NCBI GenBank assembly: GCA_028279745.1
Contig: JANQNC010000001.1
Coordinates: 480,001 to 512,000, forward strand
DNA: 32,000 bases
DNA from: Candidatus Nanoarchaeia archaeon
GTDB lineage: Archaea > Nanobdellota > Nanobdellia > Woesearchaeales > JANQNC01
Direction: 5' to 3'
The notes under the pieces are model-generated. The model did no database searches. It saw only the letters and a program-made list of their open reading frames with translations, and was not told the origin of the DNA. Shown piece after piece: positions 894 through 29,742 of the stretch. A program made the position numbers and the translations under genes. Each line of letters starts with the position of its first letter. Position 1 is the stretch's first letter.

Positions 894-913
894 AGTTTAG
901 AACAGGGATTGTT

Positions 914-923
914 TATTTATAAA
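914..923 (-). promoter_or_regulatory. Archaeal TATA-like box (reverse strand TTTATAAATA) for the flippase gene; spacing predicts a leaderless or near-leaderless mRNA
   Basis: The box centre is about 26 nt upstream of ATG 893. It sits 1 nt after the stop codon (927-925) of the upstream gene. The same motif recurs at other transcription-unit starts in the window. Confidence 0.45.
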
Positions 924-924
924 C

Positions 925-2184: not shown

Positions 2185-3362
2185 TTTGTATTTGTTTTTT
2201 TATTTTTTATCGCTTTCACGTAAGCTTTCTTCAGTTTTTTTGCAAGTTGAGTCATAGAATACTCCTTCAATGCATTATTGCTCTTAACTCTTGATTTTTT
2301 CAGCTTGTTTATCAGTTTCGGGAACTCATTTATTTTTCCAACAGACACCAGATTAGATAATTTTTCATAACCTCTAATGCCAAAAGGAGTTGTTACAACA
2401 TCTAATCCTGCACCCAAGCACTCAATAATCTTAACATTTGAGCCAGAACCTGACACGACAGGGTTTAAAGCGATGTCTGCTGCAGAATAGTAAGGAGAAA
2501 CATCTTTTACCTTTCCTGCAACTATCACTCTTTCATCTTTTATTTTATTCATGCTTTCACATATGCTTCCAACAAACATAAATTTTACATTCTTACCTGT
2601 TTTAGGTACAACCTTGTTGATAATTATGTCCTTTGCTTTCTGATTGTGTTTCATGTTGCTTGCGACAAAAACTACAAGTTTTTCTTTTTCAGACACGCAT
2701 AGTTTTTTCCTTAGTCTGTTTCTTTCATTCCTTGTTTTCTTTTTTATTCCTAAGTTATCATACCCATTTGGAACTACAACAATCTTATCTCTACTAACCC
2801 CATACTCTTTTACATAACTTTTAGCATCTCTTTCACAGCAAGTTATTGCTAAATCACATTTTTCTAGAGATTCTTTCTCTGCTTTTTTTACTAGGCCAGT
2901 AAAATAATTCTTGAATAACGAGTTATCAATATACTTCTTCCAATATTCATACTCAAAATTCTGAGAATGATACACAATGGGTTTGTCTTTTGGAACCAGA
3001 TCGTACCATGATGCAAACCACGGGAAGTTAAATTGAACCAAATCGTGTTTTCCTTTGAAAAATTTTCTGTAAAAAGGTTTTGCAATCTTTAGAAGAGAAT
3101 ACAAAACTGGTTGAGATAAGATTTTCAAATCTATCAAAGGCTGGATGAAAAAAATACTGCTTGGAGTTCTGTTAATCGAGAACCCTTTGTTTATCTTGAA
3201 CTTGTCTTTTGAGTATAAATAAGAGCTTAATTCTATAGAATCAAAGTTTACGTTTTCTTTTGCAGAGTATTTGTTAAGCAAATATATCCTTTTCTTACCT
3301 CCTGCGTTGGGAGGGATAATCCTAAAAGGGCAAAAATCTAAAACTTTCAGCTTTTTGACCAT
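2181..3362 (-). CDS. GT4-family glycosyltransferase
   Basis: 393 aa. The C-domain NPVVSGSGSNVKIIECLGAGLDVVTT is the G-x-G-x-x-x-K-x-x-E variant of the GT4 donor pocket. Its ATG (3362-3360) shares one base with the stop of the upstream gene (TAATG). Confidence 0.8.
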   Translation of the reverse strand: MVKKLKVLDFCPFRIIPPNAGGKKRIYLLNKYSAKENVNFDSIELSSYLYSKDKFKINKGFSINRTPSSIFFIQPLIDLKILSQPVLYSLLKIAKPFYRKFFKGKHDLVQFNFPWFASWYDLVPKDKPIVYHSQNFEYEYWKKYIDNSLFKNYFTGLVKKAEKESLEKCDLAITCCERDAKSYVKEYGVSRDKIVVVPNGYDNLGIKKKTRNERNRLRKKLCVSEKEKLVVFVASNMKHNQKAKDIIINKVVPKTGKNVKFMFVGSICESMNKIKDERVIVAGKVKDVSPYYSAADIALNPVVSGSGSNVKIIECLGAGLDVVTTPFGIRGYEKLSNLVSVGKINEFPKLINKLKKSRVKSNNALKEYSMTQLAKKLKKAYVKAIKNKKTNTK

Positions 3363-7866: not shown

Positions 7867-7879
7867 TTTCCTAGAAACA

Positions 7880-7903
7880 TTTATAAAATCCCGAATTTAA
7901 ATA
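7880..7903. promoter_or_regulatory. Two palindromic TATA-like boxes (TTTATAAA 7880-7887 and TTTAAATA 7896-7903) in the 59-bp divergent spacer between the two GT-C genes
   Basis: The spacer reads AGAAACATTTATAAAATCCCGAATTTAAATATTTTTGGGAAAAGGGGCAAATCATG. Box 7880-7887 predicts a + TSS near 7910, upstream of the SD AAGGGG (7914-7919). Box 7896-7903 predicts either a leaderless + mRNA at ATG 7926 or a - TSS near 7873 for ATG 7866. Confidence 0.4.
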
Positions 7904-7925
7904 TTTTTGGGAAAAGGGGCAAATC

Positions 7926-11489: not shown

Positions 11490-11510
11490 AAGCAAATAAT
11501 AGGATAAACT

Positions 11511-11518
11511 ATTTAAAT
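11511..11518. promoter_or_regulatory. Single palindromic TATA-like box ATTTAAAT shared by two divergent genes
   Basis: The box centre (11514/11515) is 26 nt from the A of ATG 11489 (- strand) and 26 nt from the A of ATG 11541 (+ strand). The 51-bp spacer has no SD on either side. Confidence 0.5.
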
Positions 11519-11540
11519 ACCTTTTGCTTATAAATGAATA

Positions 11541-12431
11541 ATGGGTGTTTCAGTAGTAATAGTAGCAAAAAAAGGGGAAAAATACGTGTATGACTGTATA
11601 GATTCTATCAAAGCGCAGTCTACAAAAGCTAGTGAAACCATAGTTGTTTCTCAAGAAAAAATTAATGTAAACGGAATCAAGAATGTAGTTTCTAAAGCGA
11701 ATAGATCAAAGGCAAGAAACATAGGCTGGAAAAAAGCAAAAAGCAAGATTGTGTTGTTTGCAGAAGCAGACTCAATATTTGGCAAGAACTGGATAAATAA
11801 CATAGTCTCTGAATTCAAAAAAGGAGCAGATGCAGTGATAGATCGAAGAGCGGTATACAAACCAAAGACATTCATACAAAAATGCGGAGATGAATTTTTT
11901 TCATTGAGGTATTCAGATTACAAGCCCTTTTGTGCGCAAGCATACAAGAAAAATGTTTTGGAAGACACAAAAGGATTTGATGAGAAGATAGAATATTCAG
12001 AAGATACCGATTTAGGAACACGTATTCTTAAGAAAGGTTATAAGATTAACTTAGCTGAAAAAGCTTTTCAGTTCCATAAAGGGGAACCAAAATCTTTGAT
12101 GGGTGTGATGAAACGATCAATAACCTTTGGGAAAGAGAAGGCAAATACCTACTTTAAGAAATATCCAAAACAAGCACCTGTTTTTGATTCAATGATGATA
12201 ATCTTGTGGTTCTTGTTACTGCCTCTAGTTTTTGTCACATTATGGAGTCTTGTTTTGTTTTTCTTGATAGACCTTATGCTTTTTACAATATTTATCGCTA
12301 AATTATTAAGGCAACAAAAACATTACAAGCTAAAGATGAGATATTTAGTTGGGATAGCTACAATGAACTACTTCAAATGGTTCTTTACAAGAATAGGGTT
12401 TATGTATGGCAAACTGAGAGGTGGAAGATGA
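11541..12431 (+). CDS. GT2-family glycosyltransferase, membrane-anchored
   Basis: 296 aa. Motifs are VSVVIVAKKGEKYVYDCIDSIKAQ and VLFAEADSIF (a DxD-like EAD). The C-terminal hydrophobic segments are MMIILWFLLLPLVFVTLWSLVLFFLIDLMLFTIFIAKLL. Confidence 0.75.
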   Translation: MGVSVVIVAKKGEKYVYDCIDSIKAQSTKASETIVVSQEKINVNGIKNVVSKANRSKARNIGWKKAKSKIVLFAEADSIFGKNWINNIVSEFKKGADAVIDRRAVYKPKTFIQKCGDEFFSLRYSDYKPFCAQAYKKNVLEDTKGFDEKIEYSEDTDLGTRILKKGYKINLAEKAFQFHKGEPKSLMGVMKRSITFGKEKANTYFKKYPKQAPVFDSMMIILWFLLLPLVFVTLWSLVLFFLIDLMLFTIFIAKLLRQQKHYKLKMRYLVGIATMNYFKWFFTRIGFMYGKLRGGR

Positions 12432-13504
12432 AGATAACTTTTTTGGTTCCGACAGTTACAGGTATAAAAAAGATATTAAGAGCATACCCTTTTGCTAGTC
12501 TGTTATCCGAAAAAAATAAAGTTCAAATAATTGGACAAAAAAACAAAAAATCCGATAAGATTCGGTTCAAACAAACAAAAAACCTAAGAATAATCAAGCT
12601 GCCGGACAATAAAAAAGAAGCAGTAAACAAAATATTAACCCTCTCTGAGGATTCTGATGTGGTCTGTGTTACAAAACCCACTTACATAACTTCAAAAGCA
12701 GGTCTGATCCTAAAAAAGAAAGGTAAGAGGCTTGTTGTAGACATAGACGATGACGATGAGTCCTCAATCCAACTTGACAACGCCAACTTCTTGACCAAAC
12801 TAATAAAAAAGATAAAAATAAAACATAACTTCTCAATAATTAAAAAAGCAGATGAAGTCGTGGTTGCTTCAACCTACCTCAAAAAAAAATATGGCGGCAC
12901 AGTCCTGCCTGTACCTGTTGAAAATAAATTCTACACACAAGGGAACAAGATAAAAAAAAATACAGTATTATACTGCGGAGCCATACAAAGACATAAAGGG
13001 ATAGACAACCTTATAGAATCTATGAGACTCTTAAACAATGTCAGACTGATCATAGCAGGTTCGAAAAAGGCAGGATCGCCCATATTTGCAAAAGAAATCC
13101 AAGAGAGAGCTAAAAAAGTAAGTAAAAACATAACTTTCAAAGGACATGTCTCTTACGATAACATTGCCAAACTGATGAGAAGCGCAGAGTGTCTTGTGCT
13201 GCCTTTACCAAACAATCCAGTTCACAAGGCGCAAACCCCCATCAAGCTAATGCACTACATGGCGTCGGGAAGACCTTTAGTTGCAACTGATGTAGGAGAT
13301 ATAAAGAAAATATTAAAGAAGGGTAAGTGCGGAGTTATAGTGAAACCTGATGACATCAATGGCTTGGCAAAAGGGATTCAAAAAGTATTAAAAGACAAAA
13401 AATTTTCAAATGCTATAGCAAAGAATGCTAGACAAGAATCCCTTAAAAAGTACTCATTCCAAGCAACAAAAAAAAGAATAACCAAGATTTTCGGAGTAAA
13501 ATGA
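12428..13504 (+). CDS. GT4-family glycosyltransferase
   Basis: I prefer ATG 12428 (MKITFLVPT...). It is preceded by GAGGTG and forms an ATGA overlap with the previous stop, unlike the track's ATG 12377. The C-domain reads LVLPLPNNPVHKAQTPIKLMHYMASGRPLVATDVGD. Confidence 0.8.
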   Translation: MKITFLVPTVTGIKKILRAYPFASLLSEKNKVQIIGQKNKKSDKIRFKQTKNLRIIKLPDNKKEAVNKILTLSEDSDVVCVTKPTYITSKAGLILKKKGKRLVVDIDDDDESSIQLDNANFLTKLIKKIKIKHNFSIIKKADEVVVASTYLKKKYGGTVLPVPVENKFYTQGNKIKKNTVLYCGAIQRHKGIDNLIESMRLLNNVRLIIAGSKKAGSPIFAKEIQERAKKVSKNITFKGHVSYDNIAKLMRSAECLVLPLPNNPVHKAQTPIKLMHYMASGRPLVATDVGDIKKILKKGKCGVIVKPDDINGLAKGIQKVLKDKKFSNAIAKNARQESLKKYSFQATKKRITKIFGVK

Positions 13505-14652
13505 AAGTAAACTTTATACACTGGCAATACAGCACATTCCCAAAGGGATTTCCAAAAACCAGCACAGGAGGTGCAGAACTAGCAATTTGGGAGATAGCTA
13601 AAAGAGTTTCTAAAAAACATAAAGTAAGAATATTTTGTTTAAGTGACAAAAACAGCATAACCAAAACACAAGGGATTGAATTTGTTAGAATACAAGCTCC
13701 CCTCCTTCTAAGAAGCAAATGGGTAAGATCCGACTATTACTTTTTCAAAGTTATGAGACAGATAAACAAAGAAAGCGAGAGTGAAAAACAAATAGTGCAC
13801 TGCATAAGCTGCATAGAGCCTGTTGCATATACAAATAACAAAGTGAGCATTGTTCTAAACATGCATAATGAAATAAAAAAATATCTGCCTTACCCCTCTT
13901 TCAAAAGAGAATGGTATGAAAAAAGGATTAACAGACTAGATTATGCAACTGGAGTATCCAACTATATCACAAAATCCTTCCTTAACTACTTTTTGTACGA
14001 TAAAAATTATGCAAAAACAATCTATAACGGAGCAGACTTTAAAATCTTCAACCCGCGAAACAGTAATAAGAGAAAAGTATGTAAAAAGTATGGCCTAGAC
14101 AGTAAAAAACCTTTGCTTTACTTCGGAGGCAGAATAATAAGAAGAAAAGGCTTACACCTCCTTCTAGACGCAATAGAAGGACTCGATGTGAATCTAGTTA
14201 TAACAGGCATTGTAGGAAAAACAAGTTCCGACAAAGATTATTACGAAGAGATACTTAAAAAAGTAAAAAATAAAGAAAACATAAAGTTTTTGGGGGACCT
14301 GAAAAAGAAAGATAGAGGAATTATAATAAGCTCAGCAGACCTGTCTTTCTGCCCATCAATTTGGGATGATCCCTCTCCACTTATGTGCTATGAATCCCAA
14401 ACCGCAGGCACGCCCATAATCGGGTTTAAGTGGGGAGGAATACCCGAACTAATAGAAACTGGAAAGACTGGAATCGTATGTAACCAAAAAGAATTAAAAA
14501 AGTACATAGTTAACTTAACAAAAAATAAGAAAAAATTAAAAGAAATGTCTAAAAATGCATACAATAAATCAAGAAAAGAATTTGATTGGGACAAAGTTGC
14601 AAAAGAATACTTGCGTATTTATGAGAGATTAAAAAATGACACTATCAACTAA
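13501..14652 (+). CDS. GT4-family glycosyltransferase
   Basis: 383 aa. The N-domain has STGGAELAIWEIAKRVSKKHKV. The C-domain has LLYFGGRIIRRKGLHLLLDA and MCYESQTAGTPIIGFKWGGIPELI. An ATGA overlap lies at 13501-13504. Confidence 0.8.
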   Translation: MKVNFIHWQYSTFPKGFPKTSTGGAELAIWEIAKRVSKKHKVRIFCLSDKNSITKTQGIEFVRIQAPLLLRSKWVRSDYYFFKVMRQINKESESEKQIVHCISCIEPVAYTNNKVSIVLNMHNEIKKYLPYPSFKREWYEKRINRLDYATGVSNYITKSFLNYFLYDKNYAKTIYNGADFKIFNPRNSNKRKVCKKYGLDSKKPLLYFGGRIIRRKGLHLLLDAIEGLDVNLVITGIVGKTSSDKDYYEEILKKVKNKENIKFLGDLKKKDRGIIISSADLSFCPSIWDDPSPLMCYESQTAGTPIIGFKWGGIPELIETGKTGIVCNQKELKKYIVNLTKNKKKLKEMSKNAYNKSRKEFDWDKVAKEYLRIYERLKNDTIN

Positions 14653-15253
14653 ACTATTCCACCTAGACAGGATACTATTCAGCTCATTCAGAAGACTTAG
14701 ACTCCAACTTTTAGGTGTGAACGTGGGGAAAAATGTGTGTTTAGGAAAAGGAATTAAAGTATTCAAAGATGACACCTCCACAATAAAAGTGGGTGACAAT
14801 TGTGAACTAAGCGAGTTTATATCACTTTACGCAATAAAAGGGGGAGAAATAAAACTAAATAAGTCTGTAAAAATAAATAACCATTCTAGCCTATTCTCAA
14901 GAGGAGGTAAAATACTGATCGACGAAGGAACCACCATATCCTCAAACTGTGGGATAAACACTGAAAAATCAAAAGTTAAGATTGGAAAAAACACTTCCAT
15001 AGCACCAAAAGTTGACATAATGGATAGAGACCATGTGTTCAGCAAGAAAAATGTGTTAATAAAAAAACAAGGCCACATAAGCAAACCAGTAGAAATTATG
15101 GACGGGTGCTGGCTTGGAGTGAAGGTGACTGTGTTAAAAGGAGTTAAGATAGGTAAAGGTTCTGTAATAGGTGCAAACAGCGTGGTCACAAAAAATATCC
15201 CTTCTTATAGCGTTGCAGTAGGCGCACCTGCAAAAGTTATTAAAAAAAGATAG
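14636..15253 (+). CDS. Hexapeptide-repeat sugar O-acetyltransferase, paralogue of 9836..10354
   Basis: 205 aa. It contains IGKNTSIAPKVDIMDRDHVF...IMDGCWLGVKVTVLKGVKIGKGSVIGANSVVTKNIPSYSVAVGAPAKVIKKR. The C-terminal ~70 aa align with the other acetyltransferase. Confidence 0.85.
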   Translation: MTLSTKLFHLDRILFSSFRRLRLQLLGVNVGKNVCLGKGIKVFKDDTSTIKVGDNCELSEFISLYAIKGGEIKLNKSVKINNHSSLFSRGGKILIDEGTTISSNCGINTEKSKVKIGKNTSIAPKVDIMDRDHVFSKKNVLIKKQGHISKPVEIMDGCWLGVKVTVLKGVKIGKGSVIGANSVVTKNIPSYSVAVGAPAKVIKKR

Positions 15254-18946: not shown

Positions 18947-18984
18947 ATACACACCTCTCTTTGATATATAATTACGACCAAAAC

Positions 18985-18992
18985 TTTAAATA
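18985..18992. promoter_or_regulatory. TATA-like box TTTAAATA (palindromic core TTTAAA) in the 72-bp divergent spacer
   Basis: The context is CCAAAACTTTAAATAG. It predicts a - TSS near 18961, giving a ~15-nt leader that carries GAGGTG. It predicts a + TSS near 19015, just before GTG 19019. Confidence 0.4.
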
Positions 18993-19018
18993 GTTATCGA
19001 ATAAATAATTATCAAGAG

Positions 19019-20170
19019 GTGTTAGAACTGAAAATCTGTTATGTTGCAACAACAATACATGTAAGCAAAGCACTTAAAGAAGGTCTGGGAGGGACTACAC
19101 ATACCTTCAACATAGCGCGAGAGTTTGTAAGACAAGGACATGAAGTTCATCTAGTGTCTGAGAAATACGAAGGCGATAAAGATTACGAGAAGATTTCTGG
19201 GATTCATGTACACCGATTACTTAGAGGAGTAATAAGTTCTTCAAAAAAAGTTAAAGCTAACCCGTTAAGAAAATTCTTAAGACCTTTAAAGAAAATATCA
19301 AACCTGTATTTAGGATATAAGATATCAGAAGTAGCAAATAAGTATGAATGTGATGTGATATTTGAAAGAGCACAATCACTAGGAACTGGAGCAATAGCAT
19401 CAAAAATAACTGGAAAACCGTTTTACATAGAAGTTGTAGATGACTGCTTCTCAAGATTTGCGGTCAATCAAGCAAAAAAAATATTCTCATTCACAAAAAC
19501 ATTCTTCAATGAAAAAAATAAGAAAAAAGTGAAGATAGTAGAAACTGGTGTAGATACGAAACTATTCAGACCCATAAAAACAAAAACAAAATATGACTTA
19601 TGTTATTGCGGATCGTTCAAAACAGTTGACGGAGTGGAGGACATAGTAGAAGCTGTGAAGATTCTTAGGGATACAAAGAATAAAAAAGTGAAAGTTCTAC
19701 TCATAGGAAAAGGAGAAAGATTTGAAGAAATCAATGATATGATAAAAGAATACGGATTAGAGAAACAATTTTATCTAACTGGACTTAAGGGATATGTGTC
19801 AACAGCAAGTCTCCCAAAACATATGTGCTCAGCAAAAGTATGCGTTGCGCCATTTAATGTAAAAAGAGCTGTCAGAGGCAATTATGAAAAATATGGATTT
19901 TATGCATCCCCTCTGAAGGTGCTTGAATATATCTCGTGTGGACAGCCAGTGATTGCGACAAACTACGCATTAATCAAAAGGATGTTGGGAGATAGAGGCA
20001 ATGCAGTCTTTAGAAGCAATAGTGTGAAAGATCTAGTGGATAAAATTAGTTTAATGTTGAAAAAGAAGAATTTGGCTGCAATAGGCAATAAAAATAGAAA
20101 AGCTTCACTAAAGTATGAGTGGAGCGAATTAACAAAGACATTTGCAAAAGAGTTCAAGGTGAAAAGATGA
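19019..20170 (+). CDS. GT4-family glycosyltransferase
   Basis: 383 aa. The N-domain has LGGTTHTFNIAREFVRQGHEVHLV. The C-domain has YCGSFKTVDGVEDIVEA and YASPLKVLEYISCGQPVIAT. GTG 19019 is the only canonical start in frame, so the start is uncertain. Confidence 0.8.
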   Translation: MLELKICYVATTIHVSKALKEGLGGTTHTFNIAREFVRQGHEVHLVSEKYEGDKDYEKISGIHVHRLLRGVISSSKKVKANPLRKFLRPLKKISNLYLGYKISEVANKYECDVIFERAQSLGTGAIASKITGKPFYIEVVDDCFSRFAVNQAKKIFSFTKTFFNEKNKKKVKIVETGVDTKLFRPIKTKTKYDLCYCGSFKTVDGVEDIVEAVKILRDTKNKKVKVLLIGKGERFEEINDMIKEYGLEKQFYLTGLKGYVSTASLPKHMCSAKVCVAPFNVKRAVRGNYEKYGFYASPLKVLEYISCGQPVIATNYALIKRMLGDRGNAVFRSNSVKDLVDKISLMLKKKNLAAIGNKNRKASLKYEWSELTKTFAKEFKVKR

Positions 20171-21222
20171 AAGTAGCATGGATAAGCGTAATGCCACCAT
20201 CACAAGATGGGCTAGCAGAATACTCTTTAAACTTGTTGGGTGAGATGAGAAAAGACAAGAAAATAGATCTTGTTGTACTAGCCCAGAAAAAACCAAAAAC
20301 AAAACTAAAAGGGCTAAAAGTTGTTAACTGTTGGGAGAAAAACAAAAAGATATCTGAACAGATCATCAAACAGTTGGAGAAAGAAAAACCAGACATCGTT
20401 CATGTACAGTTCCTAGCAGGAATGTTTGGGAAGAAAAACTTACCTTATCTTACTAAACTGTTTAAAGAACTTGAAAAGTACAAAACATTTGCAACAATAC
20501 ACTCAGATCTAGGGAGGATACCCTTGAAAAAAGTTTTCTCTAAGCTGTTCTTTTCAAATATAGACAAGTTTTTTGTGTTAAGCAAGAATCAGAAAGAACT
20601 GTTGGGTAAAGGATTTGGGGTGAAGGGTTCAAAAATAAAAAAAATACCTCACGGATGCTATATAAGAAAACCTTTGACAAGGAAGAGTAAGACAAAGAAC
20701 TTACTTTGTTTTGGGTTCATAAGAGAGAGTAAAGGTTTGAAAGAGATAGTGAGAGTGTTTAATGAGGTTAATGAAAAAGTTCCTGATTCAAGACTTGTAA
20801 TTGCAGGAAAGTGTGAAGATAGGAACTATTTGGGTGCGGTTAAGAAAGGAGTTAAAGGGAATGTTAAGATAGTCAACAAATTTCTGACTAATAGGGAAAT
20901 AACAAAACAATTTTCTGATGCAGACTTAGTGATAGATTTCCCAAAAGATGAAGGCGGGCCGTCAGGAAGCATAAACATGGCAGCAGCATACGGCAAAGGA
21001 GTGGTTTGTGCAGATACACAATATTTATCAGAATATGTTAGAGGAAGTAAAGCAGGTGTGTTAGTTAAGAAAGGAAGTTATGATAGTTTGAAGAAGAAAA
21101 TAGTTGTGTTGCTCAAGAGCAAGAAGAAAATTAATGCATTGGAGAAAAATGCAAGAACTTATTGTAAAAAGAACTCATTCAAAGAAGTTAGTAAATTAAT
21201 CTTAAAGGAGTATAAAAGATGA
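20167..21222 (+). CDS. GT4-like (GT-B) glycosyltransferase
   Basis: I prefer ATG 20167 (MKVAWISVMPPSQDGLAEYS...). It has the SD AAGGTG 5 nt upstream and an ATGA overlap with the previous stop. The track's ATG 20119 would overlap the upstream gene by 52 nt. The C-domain has LLCFGFIRESKGLKEIV and DEGGPSGSINMAAAYGKGVV. Confidence 0.75.
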   Translation: MKVAWISVMPPSQDGLAEYSLNLLGEMRKDKKIDLVVLAQKKPKTKLKGLKVVNCWEKNKKISEQIIKQLEKEKPDIVHVQFLAGMFGKKNLPYLTKLFKELEKYKTFATIHSDLGRIPLKKVFSKLFFSNIDKFFVLSKNQKELLGKGFGVKGSKIKKIPHGCYIRKPLTRKSKTKNLLCFGFIRESKGLKEIVRVFNEVNEKVPDSRLVIAGKCEDRNYLGAVKKGVKGNVKIVNKFLTNREITKQFSDADLVIDFPKDEGGPSGSINMAAAYGKGVVCADTQYLSEYVRGSKAGVLVKKGSYDSLKKKIVVLLKSKKKINALEKNARTYCKKNSFKEVSKLILKEYKR

Positions 21223-23288: not shown

Positions 23289-23296
23289 ATTTAAAT
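23289..23296 (-). promoter_or_regulatory. Palindromic TATA-like box ATTTAAAT for the epimerase gene
   Basis: The reverse strand reads ATTTAAATAAAAACTAATTAAGAAAATTCTTAAAAAAGAGGTTTAATATG. The stop codon TAA (23293-23291) of the upstream small gene lies inside the box. Confidence 0.45.
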
Positions 23297-23590
23297 GTTT
23301 TTATTATTCTTTAACTTCTTTCTTACAAAATGAACTGCAAATAAAGCACCTACTGTGAACATAATATATACTGCCATGTCTGAAAACTCAGGAGTGTTAT
23401 AGAACTGCTGGCAAGTTCCCTCAGCACCATTAGGCCCTACAGGATAACCATTAACATCCAAACAAACACTACATTCGGAATCAACCTCGCAAGGATTATC
23501 TTCATATGTGCAAGGCAAGTTACATGCATCTTGAGCGATAACATTCGATAAAAGAACCAATGCTAAAAATAAAAATAAAAAATGTTTCAT
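23291..23590 (-). CDS. Small secreted six-cysteine protein with a PEF-CTERM-like sorting tail
   Basis: 99 aa. The signal peptide is MKHFLFLFLALVLLSNVIA|QD. The ~46-aa ectodomain has 6 Cys (C-x3-C-x6-C-x5-C-x2-C-x16-C). The tail is PEF + SDMAVYIMFTVGALFAVHFV + RKKLKNNKNI. A TAAAATG junction joins it to the upstream gene. Confidence 0.75.
   Translation of the reverse strand: MKHFLFLFLALVLLSNVIAQDACNLPCTYEDNPCEVDSECSVCLDVNGYPVGPNGAEGTCQQFYNTPEFSDMAVYIMFTVGALFAVHFVRKKLKNNKNI
23294..23392 (-). other. PEF-CTERM-like C-terminal sorting signal (motif, TM helix, basic tail)
   Basis: PEFSDMAVYIMFTVGALFAVHFVRKKLKNNKNI. Confidence 0.6.
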
Positions 23591-23591
23591 T

Positions 23592-23876
23592 TTACTTTTT
23601 CTTTCGTATTAATGTGAAAGCAGCTCCGCCCGCAACTATAGCCGCACCAATACCTAAAGTGGTAAGTTCCGGAACTTCTGATTCCTCACCAAAAGGCGGG
23701 TAACAGTAGTTAGTCTTATTTTCTCCTCCACAGTACCAACCCTCTCCACAGACATCATCACAGAAAAGGTCTCCACCTTCACCTGCAACACATATCTCAT
23801 CTCCAGGGATACATTGTGCAAAAGCAACTGAAGCAGCCAATAATACAAAAACAAAATATATCATTAGTTTACTCAT
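23592..23876 (-). CDS. Small secreted six-cysteine protein with a PEL variant of the PEF-CTERM-like tail
   Basis: 94 aa. The signal peptide is MSKLMIYFVFVLLAASVAFA|QC. The ~48-aa Gly/acidic-rich ectodomain has 6 Cys (C-x6-C-x9-C-x3-C-x5-C-x8-C) and one N-K-T sequon. The tail is PEL + TTLGIGAAIVAGGAAFTLI + RKKK. Confidence 0.75.
   Translation of the reverse strand: MSKLMIYFVFVLLAASVAFAQCIPGDEICVAGEGGDLFCDDVCGEGWYCGGENKTNYCYPPFGEESEVPELTTLGIGAAIVAGGAAFTLIRKKK
23595..23672 (-). other. PEF-CTERM-like C-terminal sorting signal (PEL variant)
   Basis: PELTTLGIGAAIVAGGAAFTLIRKKK. Confidence 0.55.
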
Positions 23877-23877
23877 T

Positions 23878-24936
23878 TTATTTACCTCCTAATCTTTTCT
23901 TTCTAACTCTTAAAAATCCAACAGCACCAATAGCTAAAGCAGTCCCTGCTGCTACTGTGCCCATCTCAGGAATCTCAAATCCAAAATCAAATGGTGTTTC
24001 TTCTTCACTCAAGTCAATAACATCATTACCACAGCTAAGGCTTGAATGCACAATAACTTTACCATCTGAAGGATCAGGATTGCCTATACAGCTAAGAGGA
24101 ATCTTAACCTCAATAACATAAGTGTCTTGACGACCCGCAAATATGCCTGAACCAGAAGCAGGATCAGTTCCTGAGTAACCTTCTAAAGGAATATTGTCTC
24201 GTTTAACATATGCGACTTCAGCACAGCCTTCTTGAATATTGTCACATTCGTCAACGTGAGAATGTCCGTTTTCATCTATTATAGTTCCATCAACCCAGTC
24301 AGGCTCCTCACAAATGTCACCCATTCTTAGAGATGGATCACTTCCATCCCCATAGTTTGTGTGGTTGTTCAAAACAATACCATATGTGTATGAGAAAGGA
24401 TTCAAAACTTTTATTTCCAGATCCCCCATCCAGTAAGGATCCTCCCCATCATAAATTATTCCTGGAGGCATAGATGTAATTATTGCAAAATAAGCGTTGT
24501 TTTCATCATTATCAAAATAAATTGCTTCAATATCAAACTGCTCACCAAAAACAGGCTCTAAAACATTAAACGGATTGGTGACGGGTTCATCATAATCCTG
24601 CTGATTAGCACCTTTACCTTTTATGTGGATACCTGTTGCGGAAAAGTTACTTGCTAAATCCGTAAAGTATGATGGTTGCCCATGTTGTTCAGGATCTCTG
24701 TTGTTCTCAACAACATAGTCAACTGTTGAATGAGAAGGCTTCCATGCCTGCCTTGCAGTGGCTTCACTGTTTGAACAAGTGTTCGTGCCATTGTTTAACT
24801 CACATAAACCAACTCTTATATCGTTGTCATTAAGCCCCCAGTCTTCAAGATCTCCATCAACTGTATATGAGGCTGCCAAAACTCCACTAATAGAAACTAC
24901 AAGCGCGAAAAGCACCATAAAAATTTTATTTTTCAT
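23878..24936 (-). CDS. Secreted acidic surface protein with a PEM variant of the PEF-CTERM-like tail
   Basis: 352 aa. The signal peptide is MKNKIFMVLFALVVSISGVLA|AS. The mature N-terminus YTVDGDLEDWG resembles the start of CBM9/DOMON-like carbohydrate-binding modules, but the similarity is weak. It has 8 Cys and the sequons NGT, NFS and NHT. The tail is PEM + GTVAAGTALAIGAVGFL + RVRKKRLGGK. An SD GAGGT lies 6 nt upstream. Confidence 0.8.
   Translation of the reverse strand: MKNKIFMVLFALVVSISGVLAASYTVDGDLEDWGLNDNDIRVGLCELNNGTNTCSNSEATARQAWKPSHSTVDYVVENNRDPEQHGQPSYFTDLASNFSATGIHIKGKGANQQDYDEPVTNPFNVLEPVFGEQFDIEAIYFDNDENNAYFAIITSMPPGIIYDGEDPYWMGDLEIKVLNPFSYTYGIVLNNHTNYGDGSDPSLRMGDICEEPDWVDGTIIDENGHSHVDECDNIQEGCAEVAYVKRDNIPLEGYSGTDPASGSGIFAGRQDTYVIEVKIPLSCIGNPDPSDGKVIVHSSLSCGNDVIDLSEEETPFDFGFEIPEMGTVAAGTALAIGAVGFLRVRKKRLGGK
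23881..23970 (-). other. PEF-CTERM-like C-terminal sorting signal (PEM variant)
   Basis: PEMGTVAAGTALAIGAVGFLRVRKKRLGGK. Confidence 0.55.
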
Positions 24937-24983
24937 ATTACCTACCTCTCAAGGTTATTAAGTGTCATTTCTGGCAGTTTAAG

Positions 24984-24991
24984 TATATAAA
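24984..24991 (-). promoter_or_regulatory. TATA-like box (reverse strand TTTATATA) for the three-gene cargo operon 24936->23291
   Basis: The box lies about 50 nt upstream of ATG 24936. It predicts a ~25-nt leader carrying the SD GAGGT (24948-24944). Confidence 0.4.
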
Positions 24992-25039
24992 ACTTGTGTA
25001 TTGCCCCTTACACTATTTATTGTTGATAAAATAGATAAT

Positions 25040-25047
25040 TTTATAAA
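25040..25047 (+). promoter_or_regulatory. TATA-like box TTTATAAA for the operon starting at 25090
   Basis: The context is GATAATTTTATAAACAAAATTTGTCAGGAATAGGTAAAGCAAGGAGGGTCTAAACAATG. It predicts a TSS near 25070 and a leader carrying the SD AGGAGG (25075-25080). Confidence 0.45.
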
Positions 25048-25089
25048 CAAAATTTGTCAGGAATAGGTAAAGCAAGGAGGGTCTAAACA

Positions 25090-26403
25090 ATGAAGATAAG
25101 TGTATTCGGATTAGGATATGTAGGATGTGTTAGTAGTGCAGCATTTGCACACATGGGACATAAGATAATAGGAGTGGATCTAAACAAAATAAAAGTAGGA
25201 TTAATCAATGACGGGAAAAGCCCAATAGTAGAAAAAAACCTCGGGAAATATATCAAGGCAGGCATAAAAAACAAAAGACTAAGAGCTACAACAGACACTG
25301 AAGATGCTGTTTTAAATTCAGATGTTTCTTTAATATGTGTGGGAACACCAAGCAAAAAGTCAGGAGGACTAGACTTAAAATATACAAAAGCAGTATGCGA
25401 GGCAATAGGTAAAACCCTAAAGAAGAAAAAAGGCAATCATATCGTAATATTCAAATCAACAATGCTTCCAGGAAGCGCAGAAGATGTACTGACACCTGTG
25501 CTAGAAAAAGCATCAGGCAAAAAAGTCGGAAAAGGATTTGATGTTGTAAGTAATCCAGAATTCCTAAGAGAAAGTACAGCAATATATGACTTTTTCAATC
25601 CACCATCAACAGTAATCGGTGCTAATAACAAAAAAGCGGCAGACACAGTAGAGAAAATCTACAAAGGAGTGAAAGGGCCTTTTGTAAAGACCACCATCAA
25701 GACAGCAGAAATGGTTAAGTATACAGACAACTGTTTCCACGGATTAAAAGCAGCCTTCGGAAACGAGATAGGTGACGTATGTAAAAAAGTTGGAGTGGAT
25801 GGACATGAACTAATGAGAATATTCTGCTTGGACACCAAATTAAATCTATCACCTTACTACTTCAAACCAGGGTTCCCCTTCGGAGGAAGCTGTTTGCCTA
25901 AAGATGTAAGAGGAATGAATGCAGAAGCTAAAAAAGTTGGTTTAAGTTTACCAATATTAAAAAACATAATCCCAAGCAATAGAAACCAAATAGATATCTG
26001 TACAAATATGATCCTTAACACAAAAAAGAAAAACATAGGTATCTTGGGGTTAAGCTTTAAGGCAGATACAGACGACATAAGGGAAAGCCCAATCATAGAC
26101 ATAATCCACAATCTAAGGAAGAAAAGGAAAAATGTCATGATATATGACAGCAATGTCTTAACAGCACAAAAGTTTGGTGCGAATAAAGATGTTATCGAGA
26201 AAGAAGCACCGCACTTAATGGATCACTTCACACATTCACTTGCTGAACTGGTGAGAAAATCTGATGTTATAGTGTTTGAAAACAAAGACAAAGAATTTGA
26301 GAAAGTTTTACCTATGATAAAAAAGAAACACATAGTTATAGACTTTGTTAGATTCACATCACCCGACAAAGTAAAAGGAGTTTACGAGGGACTATGCTGG
26401 TAA
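25090..26403 (+). CDS. algD: Nucleotide-sugar 6-dehydrogenase, GDP-mannose 6-dehydrogenase (AlgD)-like
   Basis: 437 aa. Its motifs match my recollection of Pseudomonas AlgD better than Ugd: ISVFGLGYVG, LINDGKSPIVE, ICVGTPSKK, NPEFLRESTAI, GFPFGGSCLPKDV (catalytic Cys), LGLSFKADTDDIRESP and the extreme C-terminus EGLCW (AlgD ends EGICW). Ugd-type enzymes read GTGYVG and GGSCFPKD instead. The symbol denotes the family, not proven specificity. Confidence 0.85.
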   Translation: MKISVFGLGYVGCVSSAAFAHMGHKIIGVDLNKIKVGLINDGKSPIVEKNLGKYIKAGIKNKRLRATTDTEDAVLNSDVSLICVGTPSKKSGGLDLKYTKAVCEAIGKTLKKKKGNHIVIFKSTMLPGSAEDVLTPVLEKASGKKVGKGFDVVSNPEFLRESTAIYDFFNPPSTVIGANNKKAADTVEKIYKGVKGPFVKTTIKTAEMVKYTDNCFHGLKAAFGNEIGDVCKKVGVDGHELMRIFCLDTKLNLSPYYFKPGFPFGGSCLPKDVRGMNAEAKKVGLSLPILKNIIPSNRNQIDICTNMILNTKKKNIGILGLSFKADTDDIRESPIIDIIHNLRKKRKNVMIYDSNVLTAQKFGANKDVIEKEAPHLMDHFTHSLAELVRKSDVIVFENKDKEFEKVLPMIKKKHIVIDFVRFTSPDKVKGVYEGLCW

Positions 26404-27167
26404 ACAAAAAAAATTTATTTTTTGTAATTTTTATTCTTTCAATTAGTCTTGTTCTTGCATATGAAGAACAACAAGGCCAAGACTCATACTTGGCAATATG
26501 GGCAGAACACCCATCATTTTATGCTAACTATACCGGCGTGGGAGACTGCACAATAAGATTTTATGACTATGATGCATGGACAAACCCAGTATACATGGAA
26601 GGAACAGACGGGTTATATCAAACAGAATACGAGTTAAGTGAAGGAGAACATGACTGGACAGTTTCTTGTTATGATGGAAATGAAAACTTACTTTTAACAG
26701 ATACCGTTAATGTAGGTGTTGAGGTTCTCGAAGAAGACGATTATGGAAAGATAGAATGGAAAAACGGCAATCCATTTGGAAAAGACGAGGAAGAATATAC
26801 TCTGGTTGACTATAGACTGGCAGCTGCAGACTCTTCAGTGCTAGATGAAGGAGTAGACACTTCAGCAAGAATCACACTTAAACAAACCGACATATACGGC
26901 AGACCAACACTATGTTACAGACCCGACTTCAGTGAATTTTTTACAGAGGTTACAGGGAATTGCAGAGACTGTGAAGCAGACGGAATATGCACTTTGATAA
27001 GCTACTCAGATGGTGAAGTTGTTTTTGATGTTACACACTTCTCAAGCTTCGGCGTTGATGGAAGTCCTGTTGCATATGAAGCACCAGAATTTTCAGTTAC
27101 AGGAATAATAGCTACAGTCATAATTGCAGGAATTGCACTATTTTTGTATCATAAAAAAACACAGTAA
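26394..27167 (+). CDS. Secreted acidic surface protein with a PEF-CTERM-like tail
   Basis: 257 aa. The signal peptide is MLVNKKNLFFVIFILSISLVLA|YE. It has 6 Cys and an NYT sequon. EGEHDWTVSCYDGNEN resembles the G-x-H-x-[WY]-x-V-x-[AC]-x-D-x-x-G-N strand motif of bacterial/archaeal Ig-like domains, but the similarity is weak. The tail is PEF + SVTGIIATVIIAGIALFLY + HKKTQ. The gene overlaps the dehydrogenase gene by 10 nt. Confidence 0.8.
   Translation: MLVNKKNLFFVIFILSISLVLAYEEQQGQDSYLAIWAEHPSFYANYTGVGDCTIRFYDYDAWTNPVYMEGTDGLYQTEYELSEGEHDWTVSCYDGNENLLLTDTVNVGVEVLEEDDYGKIEWKNGNPFGKDEEEYTLVDYRLAAADSSVLDEGVDTSARITLKQTDIYGRPTLCYRPDFSEFFTEVTGNCRDCEADGICTLISYSDGEVVFDVTHFSSFGVDGSPVAYEAPEFSVTGIIATVIIAGIALFLYHKKTQ
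27084..27164 (+). other. PEF-CTERM-like C-terminal sorting signal
   Basis: PEFSVTGIIATVIIAGIALFLYHKKTQ. Confidence 0.6.
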
Positions 27168-27187: not shown

Positions 27188-28924
27188 ATGAAAAAGCTAA
27201 CACTGCTAATACTTGTATCATTATTCATTCTGCCAGCCGTGCTTGCATATAAAGTCGATCCTGACGAACTTACTTATACTGAAAAAGAAGTGGTGGGATA
27301 TTCCGCACTAAATATAAGAGGGATAGACAACCAAGGATACACACAAGGAAAATCATTCAAATGGAAAGTTGATATGTACTTGCCAGAAGAAACTTTTGTA
27401 TACGCACAACCAGTATCAAAAATAGTACTTAGGATAAGGAATGCGACAAAACCTTTCACTGTGCCGAAAGAGGCAGTGTTTACAGGGATGGAAAGGTATC
27501 CCTTAACAGGAAACTTTAGGACCGTTACAGGAATTAAAGACTTAGACGTAGTATATTACCATTCTATGTGGTCTGTTGGAGGAAATAGCATAGCTTCCAC
27601 ACCTCAACAAAATACTATTGCAGTCAACAACGGGAGATATCAAAAAGTTACAATACACCTACCTGAAAAACCCATACTCAAAAAGATAGGTGATGCTGAA
27701 AGACCAAAAGATGTCATCAAGATGGACGAGTCTACCTACTTCTTCCCACACATAGAACTGCCAGCAGTTGTATACTATGATCCCGGGAAAAAGTCTGCCG
27801 TGCAGAAAGGACTGATCCTAATCTTAATACTAGCAACCATCGCATTATTTACGCTAGCAAAATTCATACCCTCATTCAACATAAAATCAAAACACATGCT
27901 GCTTGCATTAATACTTACATTCTTACTTATGGCCCAATTCGCACAAATAGTCCCAAACCCAGAAAAAACAGTCCTAAACTTACAAAAATCAACAAAACCC
28001 TTTGAAACAGATAAAAAAGTGCTTTCGACATTTACCACCTATCTCTGGAACACAATAGGGTTAACAAAAACTATCGACTATGCAATCATAGGAAACAGCT
28101 ACAAATGCGGGAGTAAACAATACTTCTTAACAGAAAGAAGCGCTGAAAAAATATTTGTTGTGGACAAGTATGAAAACTACAGATGTTCGAGAAACCTATT
28201 TGAAAATTTCAACTCATCCAAAATAGAAGTGATGAGCATCGAAGAGATAGAAGAAGAACTAAGCAAAGAGGGCAGCTTAAGACATCCTTTCAAAAAGTTG
28301 TTCATAACAAATGCTAAACTGATAACATTCCTATCTGCAATACTGTTCTCTTTCTTAAGTGCATATCTAATATTGCTGGTAGTAGAGATTAAGAAAACAA
28401 AAATATGGCTTGCTGCAATAATAATGTTTGTTTCATATTTTTTACTCAAACTGTTCTATACCCTCATAGGCTACATTGCACATATGCCTGTAAGTTATCA
28501 CGGAAACCTTCCTTTCGGAATGACTTTAACCGCATTCTTCATGCCCGACACAGTCTTTGGAGGGAACACAGTAAGGCTTATCTTTTCTGTACTCGGGGTA
28601 CTTATATTAATTTTCTCAAGAATGTTTAGAAGAAAAATAAATATTGCGTTAGTTTTTGTACCTATACTTTTTATGATACTATTGTTGGCACTGCCACAAA
28701 CAGAGTTCATGGCAAAAAGAGAAGTAATAACCGTAATGTCTGGAGAAGGATTCTTGTATGACCAGAGAATAGGGAACGCCTTCTCTCTAAAAGAGATGTA
28801 TACTAAGATGAGGAACGAAGATTATAAACAAGTCCAAAATTATCTATGCACAAGAGATGATCTAAAAGACTCTCTCACACAAAAAGTATTAGCATGCGAA
28901 AGTAAAGGGGATGATACAAAATGA
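27188..28924 (+). CDS. Uncharacterised polytopic membrane protein with an N-terminal ~190-aa exported domain
   Basis: 578 aa. The signal peptide is MKKLTLLILVSLFILPAVLA|YK, followed by a soluble domain and 2 TM helices. A ~120-aa loop (with Cys in YKCGSKQ and YRCSRN) precedes about 5 more TM helices and an ~80-aa soluble C-terminus. I recognise no family motif. An ATGA overlap joins it to the next gene at 28921-28924. Confidence 0.75.
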   Translation: MKKLTLLILVSLFILPAVLAYKVDPDELTYTEKEVVGYSALNIRGIDNQGYTQGKSFKWKVDMYLPEETFVYAQPVSKIVLRIRNATKPFTVPKEAVFTGMERYPLTGNFRTVTGIKDLDVVYYHSMWSVGGNSIASTPQQNTIAVNNGRYQKVTIHLPEKPILKKIGDAERPKDVIKMDESTYFFPHIELPAVVYYDPGKKSAVQKGLILILILATIALFTLAKFIPSFNIKSKHMLLALILTFLLMAQFAQIVPNPEKTVLNLQKSTKPFETDKKVLSTFTTYLWNTIGLTKTIDYAIIGNSYKCGSKQYFLTERSAEKIFVVDKYENYRCSRNLFENFNSSKIEVMSIEEIEEELSKEGSLRHPFKKLFITNAKLITFLSAILFSFLSAYLILLVVEIKKTKIWLAAIIMFVSYFLLKLFYTLIGYIAHMPVSYHGNLPFGMTLTAFFMPDTVFGGNTVRLIFSVLGVLILIFSRMFRRKINIALVFVPILFMILLLALPQTEFMAKREVITVMSGEGFLYDQRIGNAFSLKEMYTKMRNEDYKQVQNYLCTRDDLKDSLTQKVLACESKGDDTK

Positions 28925-29742
28925 GATTCAAAAAACTATTGACTGCACTGTTACTTTCGTTCCCACTAGTGCAAGCTCAAGGAATAAGCAGCATGCTAGA
29001 CACGGCACAATACAGTAGAGGAATGATGCTGTTCTTCTTATGTTTAGCAATATTAATAGCATTCCCTTTCATCAACAAACAGATAAAAAGCATCATGCTT
29101 ATACCCTTCCTTTTCATCCTGGGAAGAGGGCTTATAAGGATTGGAGAACAAGACATAGTAAAAGCATTTACAAGTGTGCTTCCAGGACTAAAAGTGGGCG
29201 TGCCGCTTGCAATTGTTCTAGTTGTAGTGAGCGCAATACTTTTTGTGCCAGTGTATCTGTTACGTAAAGCAAATATAATAAAACCAGAGACAACTGACTC
29301 TTTAGAAAAATACTTCAAAGAAGGAACAAAAAAAGGCCACGACATAGAAAGCCTGAAAAAAGCACTGTACCTTCAAGGAATATCAAAAATAGATGTGGAT
29401 GATGCAGCACAAAGTGCAATATCTTCCCCATTACTTAGAAAAATAACTGAAAAAGTAAAAGGTAAGAAAAGCGTTACTTCACTAAAAGACTATTTTGACC
29501 AAGGTCTGAAAAAAGGCTACTCAGTTAGTGCTCTTAAAATGACTTTAGTTAAAAAAGGATTTGAACAAAGCGTAGTAGAAAAAGCTTCAGATAGATTCAA
29601 AAAACCAGAAAGCTACCTGGAAGAATACATACAAAAAGGACTGAAAAAAGGATTTAAGATCGAATCTTTAAAAAAAGCACTGTTAAAACAAGGTGTTGAT
29701 TCAAAAGATCTTGAAAATGCAATTAACAAGGTGACAAAATGA
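28921..29742 (+). CDS. Uncharacterised membrane protein with three C-terminal ~40-aa helical repeats
   Basis: 273 aa. The signal-like N-terminus MRFKKLLTALLLSFPLVQA|QG is followed by three hydrophobic helices. After LLRKANIIK come three repeats of the L-x-x-Y-[FI]-x-x-G-L-K-K-G-[YFH]-x-[IV]-x-[SA]-L-K-x-x-L-x-x-x-G type. Confidence 0.75.
   Translation: MRFKKLLTALLLSFPLVQAQGISSMLDTAQYSRGMMLFFLCLAILIAFPFINKQIKSIMLIPFLFILGRGLIRIGEQDIVKAFTSVLPGLKVGVPLAIVLVVVSAILFVPVYLLRKANIIKPETTDSLEKYFKEGTKKGHDIESLKKALYLQGISKIDVDDAAQSAISSPLLRKITEKVKGKKSVTSLKDYFDQGLKKGYSVSALKMTLVKKGFEQSVVEKASDRFKKPESYLEEYIQKGLKKGFKIESLKKALLKQGVDSKDLENAINKVTK
29299..29730 (+). repeat. Three protein-level repeats (aa 127-166, 187-226 and 231-270 of the 273-aa protein)
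   Basis: The repeats are SLEKYFKEGTKKGHDIESLKKALYLQGISKIDVDDAAQSA, SLKDYFDQGLKKGYSVSALKMTLVKKGFEQSVVEKASDRF and SYLEEYIQKGLKKGFKIESLKKALLKQGVDSKDLENAINKV. Confidence 0.8.

Follow-up and report, generated by a model that had tools for sequence, protein, structure and literature searches.

The protein-sorting system closest to the locus reported here is PEF-CTERM/archaeosortase C (ArtC), which was described in silico by Haft, Payne and Selengut in 2012, as cited in PMC5244752 and PMC6098224. The enzyme paired with PEF-CTERM in the literature is archaeosortase C (PMC5244752), and a tripartite tail with the motif abutting the helix has been described (10.1101/2023.06.07.544157). The only experimentally characterised archaeal case is ArtA/PGF-CTERM (PMC7157517; 10.1101/2023.06.07.544157), and PEP-CTERM/EpsH systems cluster with exopolysaccharide genes (PMC1569441). 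In this work, we analysed a stretch of 32,000 nucleotides (contig JANQNC010000001.1, positions 480,001 to 512,000; hereafter the window) that carries on its minus strand a gene for a 352-residue protein (cargo352) followed by two very small genes, miniB and miniA. From their sequences, the two mini-proteins are predicted to be unusually small cargo of a known sorting architecture with a variant signature, in which P-E is followed by one of several hydrophobic residues (P-E-Φ).

The two tandem open reading frames (ORFs) and their domain sequences match exactly those given in a sequence-only reading of the window that preceded this analysis, and the layout which that reading had assigned to them is present in both: a signal peptide, a short ectodomain with six cysteines, a P-E-[F/L] motif, a membrane helix and a basic end, which is rich in Lys and Arg. 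The ectodomains are 47–48 residues long and acidic. The signal peptides, which were called by rule-based inspection of the sequence, have a K-containing n-region, a hydrophobic core of approximately 14 residues and small residues at −3/−1 (VIA in miniA and AFA in miniB, each followed by Q). All six mini-protein sequences, from the window and from the orthologues described below, share a K/R n-region, a hydrophobic core, small residues at −3/−1 and then a conserved Gln, and cleavage would most likely leave an N-terminal Gln in both mini-proteins; for miniA this moves the probable start of the ectodomain to one residue before the position first proposed. No lipobox of the form [LVI][ASTVI][GAS]C is found at the cleavage site in the mini-proteins or in any orthologue, the first Cys coming after Q, QDA, QTRD or QT.

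Each ectodomain contains exactly six Cys, spaced 3-6-5-2-16 in miniA versus 6-9-3-5-8 in miniB. Given that Cys makes up 1.1% of the other proteins of the window, the probability of finding at least six in 46–48 residues is approximately 1.4–1.8e-5. The ectodomains of the two window proteins carry net charges of −8 and −10, and one N-glycosylation sequon occurs in miniB and in each of its orthologues, at differing positions. The two ectodomains are unrelated to each other (BLASTP E 5.6; hhalign probability 2%), which bears out the earlier view that the genes are not simple duplicates.

On the minus strand the gene order is cargo352, miniB, miniA, and TAA-A-ATG is read on the coding strand at both junctions, which are thus the identical TAAAATG junctions noted before, including the one to the upstream 352-residue gene. 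The three genes are transcribed divergently from a UDP-glucose dehydrogenase gene, neither of the intergenic junctions contains a terminator-like site according to a consensus scan, and the TTTATATA box upstream of cargo352 is the probable operon promoter. This arrangement is best explained by a single operon in which cargo352, miniB and miniA are tightly coupled and which is part of an extensive locus for glycan biosynthesis.

To characterise the tails, we scanned all six frames of the window for P-[ED]-hydrophobic followed by a hydrophobic stretch and a basic end. Exactly four ORFs of the window fitted this description, and they are clustered within 4 kb: miniA, miniB, cargo352 and a 257-residue protein encoded on the opposite strand, which belong to four unrelated families. 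All four tails are built in the same way, with P-E-[FLM], 0–3 further residues, a hydrophobic stretch of 17–20 residues and a KK/RK-rich end. The P-E-[F/L] motif given previously holds for the two mini-proteins, although across the window set and the orthologues the third position is F, L, M or I, and P-E-Φ is kept at 40–55% identity. Homologues of cargo352 (P0006 to P0011) bear PE[MFI] or PAF tails. Two bacterial homologues, one of them in an Armatimonadia metagenome-assembled genome (L001) and the other in L014, end in a bona fide PEP-CTERM above the curated cutoffs (TIGR02595, 25.0 and 24.7 bits with a cutoff of 16; PF07589, 30.4 with a cutoff of 20.7). In three further loci (L004, L012 and L013), distant cargo homologues with PAF, PEF and PEY tails directly adjoin genes for multi-pass proteins of the archaeosortase family. 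These neighbouring enzymes score 50–58 bits with the exosortase/archaeosortase signature TIGR04178, above its cutoff of 23. Of the specific models, archaeosortase C fits them best, at 37–54 bits and below its cutoff of 100, and when aligned they share invariant Cys, Arg and His residues; the ArtA models do not match them (E 0.57). Because the motif is common to four unrelated proteins, because bacterial cargo homologues carry PEP-CTERM and because distant homologues adjoin archaeosortase genes, the P-E-Φ tail may be read, with this indirect support, as an exosortase/archaeosortase-type sorting signal.

Several observations weigh against this assignment. Pfam and NCBIfam scans of the 32-kb window found no archaeosortase or exosortase, and the best score with a dedicated profile was 4 bits. 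The PEF-CTERM model (TIGR03024) and the PEP-CTERM models gave no match at E<=1 for the window tails or their close relatives, in a library whose PEF-CTERM content is unconfirmed; the same scans did pick up PEP-CTERM in the bacterial homologues. The sortase-type anchor put forward by the sequence-only reading has the comparative evidence behind it but neither an enzyme in the window nor a PEF- or PEP-CTERM model match. A Thr/Ser-rich linker is absent ahead of the P-E-Φ motif in the mini-proteins. The helix of miniB (GIGAAIVAGGAA) is 59–75% identical between orthologues whereas the ectodomain is only 35–38% identical, and a helix better kept than the ectodomain would also fit a permanent, helix-packing membrane anchor. 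As for the modules that sorting would leave at the surface, the AlphaFold modelling that had been suggested as a check gave one miniA model of five, with two short strands, at a predicted local distance difference test score (pLDDT) of 82, whereas the others were at approximately 45 and miniB was modelled at a low confidence of 62.

Some of these observations favour a different picture, in which the helix is never removed and both mini-proteins stay in the membrane for good as single-pass (type I) proteins, P-E-Φ is merely a conserved juxtamembrane feature, and the Gly/Ala-rich helix of miniB packs against another helix, for example that of cargo352. The lack of an archaeosortase in the window, the unmatched tails, the strong conservation of the miniB tail relative to its ectodomain and a small-xxx-small pattern in that tail all count in its favour. 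Set against them are the three-residue motif, which four proteins with nothing else in common have in the same place, the true PEP-CTERM of the bacterial cargo homologues, the archaeosortase-family genes beside distant homologues in three loci, and the miniA tail, which is no better conserved than the miniA ectodomain. We consider permanent anchoring unlikely, although it is the strongest competitor of the sorting model.

Other candidates for the tail and for its enzyme were examined and rejected. No LPXTG pentapeptide is present, miniB reading VPELTTLG. The LPXTG_anchor model TIGR01167 gave weak matches to the window protein (15.5 bits) and to its L003 orthologue (19.8 bits), mainly over the helix and basic part (model positions 7–33 and 14–34 of 34, respectively), and such cross-hits of the LPXTG model are treated as noise (Haft 2006, PMC1569441). 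The 578-, 273- and 124-residue membrane proteins encoded downstream of the 257-residue protein were considered as sorting enzymes and discarded, as they have no exosortase or archaeosortase similarity; on inspection, the 578-residue protein has no Cys in its membrane segments. This 578-residue protein is polytopic with a large N-terminal extracytoplasmic domain, has no family match and is co-directional with the 257-residue PEF-tail protein, while the 273-residue protein contains three tandem repeats of approximately 35 residues (…YF..G.KKG….SLKKAL..QG…) in its soluble part and gives weak RecX-HTH-like (helix-turn-helix) matches.

The account that we favour, and regard as probable though by no means certain, is that one operon encodes three Sec-exported envelope proteins, and that an archaeosortase similar to ArtC, with its gene outside the window, recognises their P-E-Φ tails. 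In such a scheme, cargo352, miniB and miniA would be exported through Sec, with the signal peptide of each mini-protein probably cut after VIA or AFA, and the C-terminal helix would at first hold each product in the membrane with its Lys/Arg cluster in the cytoplasm. An enzyme of the exosortase/archaeosortase type, closest to ArtC, would recognise P-E-Φ at the outer end of the helix, remove the helix and join the new C-terminus to a lipid or an envelope acceptor, by analogy with ArtA and PGF-CTERM. Processing would reduce each mini-protein to approximately 46–48 acidic residues with six Cys, a module lying directly against the cell surface, most probably as an accessory partner of the 352-residue protein in a glycan-rich envelope. 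We thus infer a cognate enzyme in this genome, cleavage and re-anchoring of the tails, and joint action of the mini-proteins with cargo352. A bolder version, which we hold to be distinctly unlikely, would make the mini-proteins acidic, disulfide-locked peptides of approximately 46 residues, covalently lipid-anchored on a small-genome (1.3-Mb contig), probably archaeal cell and the smallest archaeosortase cargo known. They would then act, with the 352-residue protein, as fast-evolving recognition or adhesion modules or as organisers of the glycan coat, and their enzyme would represent a new ArtC-like subfamily recognising P-E-Φ, outside the euryarchaeal groups in which archaeosortases have been described.

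Given the six cysteines, the ectodomains had been compared to knottin, EGF or defensin-like domains. This comparison was not sustained, as no such similarity was found in Pfam, in PDB sequence and profile searches or with Foldseek, and the domains are acidic. Neither single sequences nor three-sequence profiles of the ectodomains gave a significant match in Pfam (none at E<=0.1) or PDB. The best PDB and profile E-values, 0.017–0.1, fell on a heterogeneous set of RING fingers, cytochrome c CxxC regions and snake toxins, and these weak matches are driven by Cys composition. A Foldseek search of the mini-protein models, which are of limited confidence, found no match in PDB below E=6. From the extracytoplasmic location of the domains, we infer that the six Cys would form three disulfides. 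They could instead bind metal as zinc-knuckle-like C-x2-3-C pairs, an arrangement that would fit either anchoring model. The invariant C-x3-C and C-x2-C pairs of miniA speak for it, and the miniA profile weakly finds RING fingers and cytochrome c CxxC regions (E 0.017–3, not significant). Extracellular disulfide formation is also less certain in anoxic settings, and the related contigs are metagenomic and some of them possibly anoxic in origin. Against metal binding stand the extracytoplasmic location given by the signal peptide and the C1–C2 spacing of miniB, which varies from 3 to 7 and is atypical of a fixed metal knuckle; moreover, no match is significant. A haem site is also not indicated, as the CxxCH motif is absent in the miniA family, whose sequences CSVCL, CPICK and CPACM have no His after CxxC. 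We regard metal binding as improbable.

Still less probable, and to our mind very improbable, is the idea that the cell releases the mini-proteins as toxins, similar to defensins or bacteriocins, or as signalling peptides, the tail being only an export or maturation handle. Their small size, six Cys and fast divergence relative to the flanking enzymes would suit such a role, and there are non-significant, composition-driven matches to snake three-finger toxins, evasin-3 and gamma-thionin. However, the strongly acidic ectodomains argue against a defensin-like toxin, no toxin family was matched significantly in sequence or fold, and no immunity, ABC (ATP-binding cassette) exporter or maturation genes lie nearby, the neighbours being glycan enzymes and another tail-bearing surface protein.

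The coding status of the two genes was examined through their relatives. Cargo352 has homologues at 66% (P0006) and 56% (P0007) identity, down to 29% (P0011). On the contig of P0006 (L003), the cargo gene is followed by genes for 94 and 97 residues that are clear orthologues of miniB and miniA. In L006, L007 and L008, the order is cargo, miniB orthologue, an inserted pair of HEPN-like and nucleotidyltransferase genes, miniA orthologue and epimerase. The cargo-miniB-miniA order is thus found in three lineages (the window, L003 and L006/L007/L008), the two besides the window being metagenomic. In a fourth locus, L005, the contig stops 59 nt past the cargo gene, inside the signal peptide of the next, miniB-like ORF. 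Of the enzymes encoded on either side, the UDP-glucose dehydrogenase shows 88% identity between loci and the epimerase 81%, and the loci are therefore orthologous. The cargo proteins are 66% identical whereas the mini-proteins are 40–55% identical, so that sequence change has been much more rapid in the surface genes than in the genes around them.

Despite this divergence, the six Cys, whose loss in homologues had been named as the finding that would overturn the proposal, are retained in 3/3 members of each mini-protein family, and all indels are in frame. The miniA family has Cys spacings of 3-(4-6)-5-2-(15-16), and the miniB family keeps a constant core, C-x3-C-G-x(2,3)-W-[FY]-C. Pairwise ratios of nonsynonymous to synonymous substitution rates (dN/dS) are 0.12–0.35 with dS near saturation, being approximately 0.32–0.34 for miniA and 0.12–0.35 for miniB in the two computable pairs, the pair of window and L003 being saturated. 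The GGAGGT ahead of miniB is present in 4/4 loci (window, L003, L005 and L006), dual-coded as the C-terminal Gly-Gly of the cargo protein (…LGGK*, LGGN*, QGGK*), and in L003, L005 and L006 the miniB ATG comes 1–2 nt after the cargo stop codon or overlaps it. On the strength of the syntenic orthologues, in-frame indels, low dN/dS, kept Cys and conserved GGAGGT, we take miniA and miniB to be genuine, translationally coupled protein-coding genes. That they are chance open frames, unexpressed, is effectively refuted: neither has a Pfam or NCBIfam family, and a word-indexed search of 5.8 billion proteins returned self-matches only, but chance would not account for syntenic orthologues in two further lineages, in-frame indels, a dN/dS far less than 1, a number of Cys that never changes and a Shine-Dalgarno sequence kept across loci. 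Among the known proteins, miniA, miniB, cargo352 and the 257- and 578-residue proteins are all singletons that come from a single NCBI contig of 1,301,350 bp.

An exhaustive HMMER search with miniA gave 13 non-self matches, of which one is a true homologue, P0013 (102 residues, 40% identity). The giant proteins among the others have eukaryotic NLR-type leucine-rich repeats or Big_2-like repeats, in which many repeats like VGPNGA..QQFYNTP inflate the scores; such repeat proteins (P0012, P0014–P0019, P0021–P0024) reach E-values as low as 1e-12 against the 99-residue query by summing weak repeats, and P0020 and P0022 were likewise rejected as repeat or composition matches. A scan of viral contigs with miniB found no match, and the single viral-contig match of miniA (L016) is spurious, being an antisense frame of a phage SSB gene. 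The mini-genes are seen only beside cargo homologues of at least 56% identity. The homologue search recommended earlier thus recovered orthologues in L003 and L006/L007/L008, whereas no mini-ORF lies beside the distant cargo homologues (L009–L013 and L017; 26–38% identity) on the available, often short, contig sequence. The mini-proteins appear restricted to a close clade, and "new class" overstates what we take to be two lineage-restricted orphan families in some three to four (~3-4) closely related uncultured lineages.

The cassette that separates the miniB and miniA orthologues in L006 and L007 consists of two genes, for a 119-residue HEPN-like protein and a 167-residue Polbeta/NTP_transf_2 nucleotidyltransferase. 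Together the two genes look like a toxin-antitoxin pair of the HEPN/MNT kind, with the smaller product, which has no Pfam match, called HEPN-like by appearance.

The cargo352 family spans domains of life and shares the motifs YFDNDE..YFAI[IV]TS.. and SCGND[VI]I. Its tails are PEP-CTERM in bacteria and PEF, PEY or PAF elsewhere, often beside a dedicated archaeosortase-family gene; in L004, two paralogues flank such a gene. The family has no match in the local Pfam copy, and PF26596 is listed as precomputed for P0009 and P0010. In L017, where the contig has a coverage of 2.2x, two separate ORFs make up a cargo homologue of 38% identity; this is probably a sequencing frameshift or a pseudogene. 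The coordinates of all these features are collected in the table.

Table. Coordinates of the operon, of neighbouring features in the window and of related loci.
Feature	Sequence	Position	Strand	Description
cargo352 gene	window	23878..24936	minus	352 aa; first operon gene; signal peptide, ~300-aa domain (YFDNDENNAYFAIITSMPP ... SCGNDVI), tail IPEMGTVAAGTALAIGAVGFLRVRKKRLGGK
miniB gene	window	23592..23876	minus	94 aa; stop 23592..23594
miniB signal peptide	window	23817..23876	minus	
miniB six-Cys ectodomain	window	23673..23816	minus	QCIPGDEICVAGEGGDLFCDDVCGEGWYCGGENKTNYCYPPFGEESEV
miniB tail	window	23595..23672	minus	PELTTLGIGAAIVAGGAAFTLIRKKK
miniA gene	window	23291..23590	minus	99 aa; stop 23291..23293
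miniA signal peptide	window	23534..23590	minus	
miniA six-Cys ectodomain	window	23393..23533	minus	QDACNLPCTYEDNPCEVDSECSVCLDVNGYPVGPNGAEGTCQQFYNT
miniA tail	window	23294..23392	minus	PEFSDMAVYIMFTVGALFAVHFVRKKLKNNKNI
Shine-Dalgarno sequence for miniB	window	23884..23889	minus	GGAGGT within the last Gly-Gly codons of cargo352, then TAA-A-ATG
Purine-rich ribosome-binding site	window	24941..24950	minus	GAGAGGTAGG; 4 nt ahead of cargo352 ATG
TATA-like box	window	24984..24991	minus	TTTATATA; 55 nt upstream of cargo352 start, in 153-bp divergent intergenic region
257-aa protein gene	window	26394..27167	plus	fourth protein with the same tail type; six Cys; ...AYEAPEFSVTGIIATVIIAGIALFLYHKKTQ; in divergent operon behind UDP-glucose dehydrogenase gene
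578-aa membrane protein gene	window	27188..28924	plus	
273-aa membrane protein gene	window	28921..29742	plus	
Overlapping glycosyltransferase ORFs, first pair	window	11541..12431 and 12377..13504		
Overlapping glycosyltransferase ORFs, second pair	window	19019..20170 and 20119..21222		
Divergent intergenic regions	window	7867..7925; 11496..11540; 18953..19018; 24937..25089		45–153 bp
miniB orthologues	L003; L006	2139..2423; 693..980		six Cys and VPE[LF]TT kept
miniA orthologues	L003; L006	2416..2709; 1954..2262 (P0013)		six Cys and PE[FM]S kept
GGAGGT sites in relatives	L003; L005; L006	about 2126..2131; about 1245..1250; about 679..684		
HEPN-like/nucleotidyltransferase cassette	L006; L007	1065..1893; 934..1762		between miniB and miniA orthologues
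cargo352 family member	L001	5066..6130		
cargo352 family member	L014	9743..10657		
cargo352 family members	L004	10001..10753 and 13980..14798		
cargo352 family members	L009–L013			
Split cargo352 homologue	L017	301..570 and 703..1308		

The window has approximately 35% G+C and no tRNA genes, and it is essentially one large glycan-biosynthesis locus with approximately 15 glycosyltransferase genes, two PMT_2-type transferases, two hexapeptide acyltransferases, a Wzx-type flippase, a UDP-glucose dehydrogenase and an NAD-dependent epimerase. The motif TTTAWAWW lies 21–55 nt upstream of 9/13 operon starts, compared with 2.4% of random positions, and several of these boxes are approximately 30 nt from the start codon, as expected of archaeal TATA boxes on leaderless or short-leader mRNAs. 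This pattern suggests an archaeal host. It is the promoter motif alone that points to an archaeon, and the "episymbiotic archaeon" of the sequence-only reading is not established. The four divergent intergenic regions listed in the table contain TTTAWAWW for one or both flanking genes, and one more such box, which lies 46 nt before the start of the epimerase gene, overlaps the stop codon of miniA. Two pairs of glycosyltransferase ORFs overlap by approximately 50 nt when read from the first in-frame start, and their true starts probably lie further downstream.

If the tails are processed, the mini-proteins would be by far the smallest predicted archaeosortase-type substrates, and the system could display bare Cys-rich mini-domains, beyond S-layer proteins, adhesins and enzymes. 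The range of the P-E-Φ form of the signal would then include a small-genome uncultured lineage, which would imply an ArtC-like enzyme there as well. The operon might also serve as a compact test system for archaeosortase specificity, as it encodes three co-translated substrates of very different sizes with the same signature, and the mini-domains could be used as natural surface-display scaffolds. If the tails are instead permanent anchors, the finding shrinks to two lineage-specific small membrane proteins.

We found no earlier description in the literature of small Cys-rich proteins with PEF tails. With knottins or inhibitor cystine knots (ICK), EGF-like domains, defensins and three-finger toxins, the ectodomains share six Cys in fewer than 50 residues, an extracytoplasmic location and predicted short beta-hairpins. 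They differ from these small disulfide-rich domains in giving no significant match, in Cys spacings that do not fit EGF and in their strongly negative charge, in contrast to the cationic defensins. Of the sorting systems, PEP-CTERM/exosortase (EpsH, XrtA) of Gram-negative bacteria (PMC1569441) resembles the locus in tail architecture, in its setting in an exopolysaccharide or glycosyltransferase locus and through the PEP-CTERM cargo352 homologues of L001 and L014. In contrast, the window tails read P-E-[FLM] rather than P-E-P and have no TIGR02595 or PF07589 match, and the promoters point to an archaeon as host, in which case there would be no outer membrane. ArtA/PGF-CTERM of Haloferax volcanii (PMC7157517; 10.1101/2023.06.07.544157) is the source of the mechanism borrowed here, namely helix removal and covalent lipid attachment, whereas its signature is PGF and its substrates are large S-layer glycoproteins with Thr/Ser-rich linkers. 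The likeness to PEF-CTERM/ArtC lies in the combination of a signal peptide with a tripartite tail (P-E-F-type signature, helix and basic cluster), in the presence of this tail on several unrelated proteins and in the cargo352 relatives that adjoin archaeosortase-family genes with ArtC as the best specific match. The locus departs from that system in that no PEF-CTERM model matches, the third position is F, L, M or I, the enzymes of the relatives score below the ArtC cutoff, the window has no enzyme gene, and the mature cargo would be only approximately 46–48 residues long.

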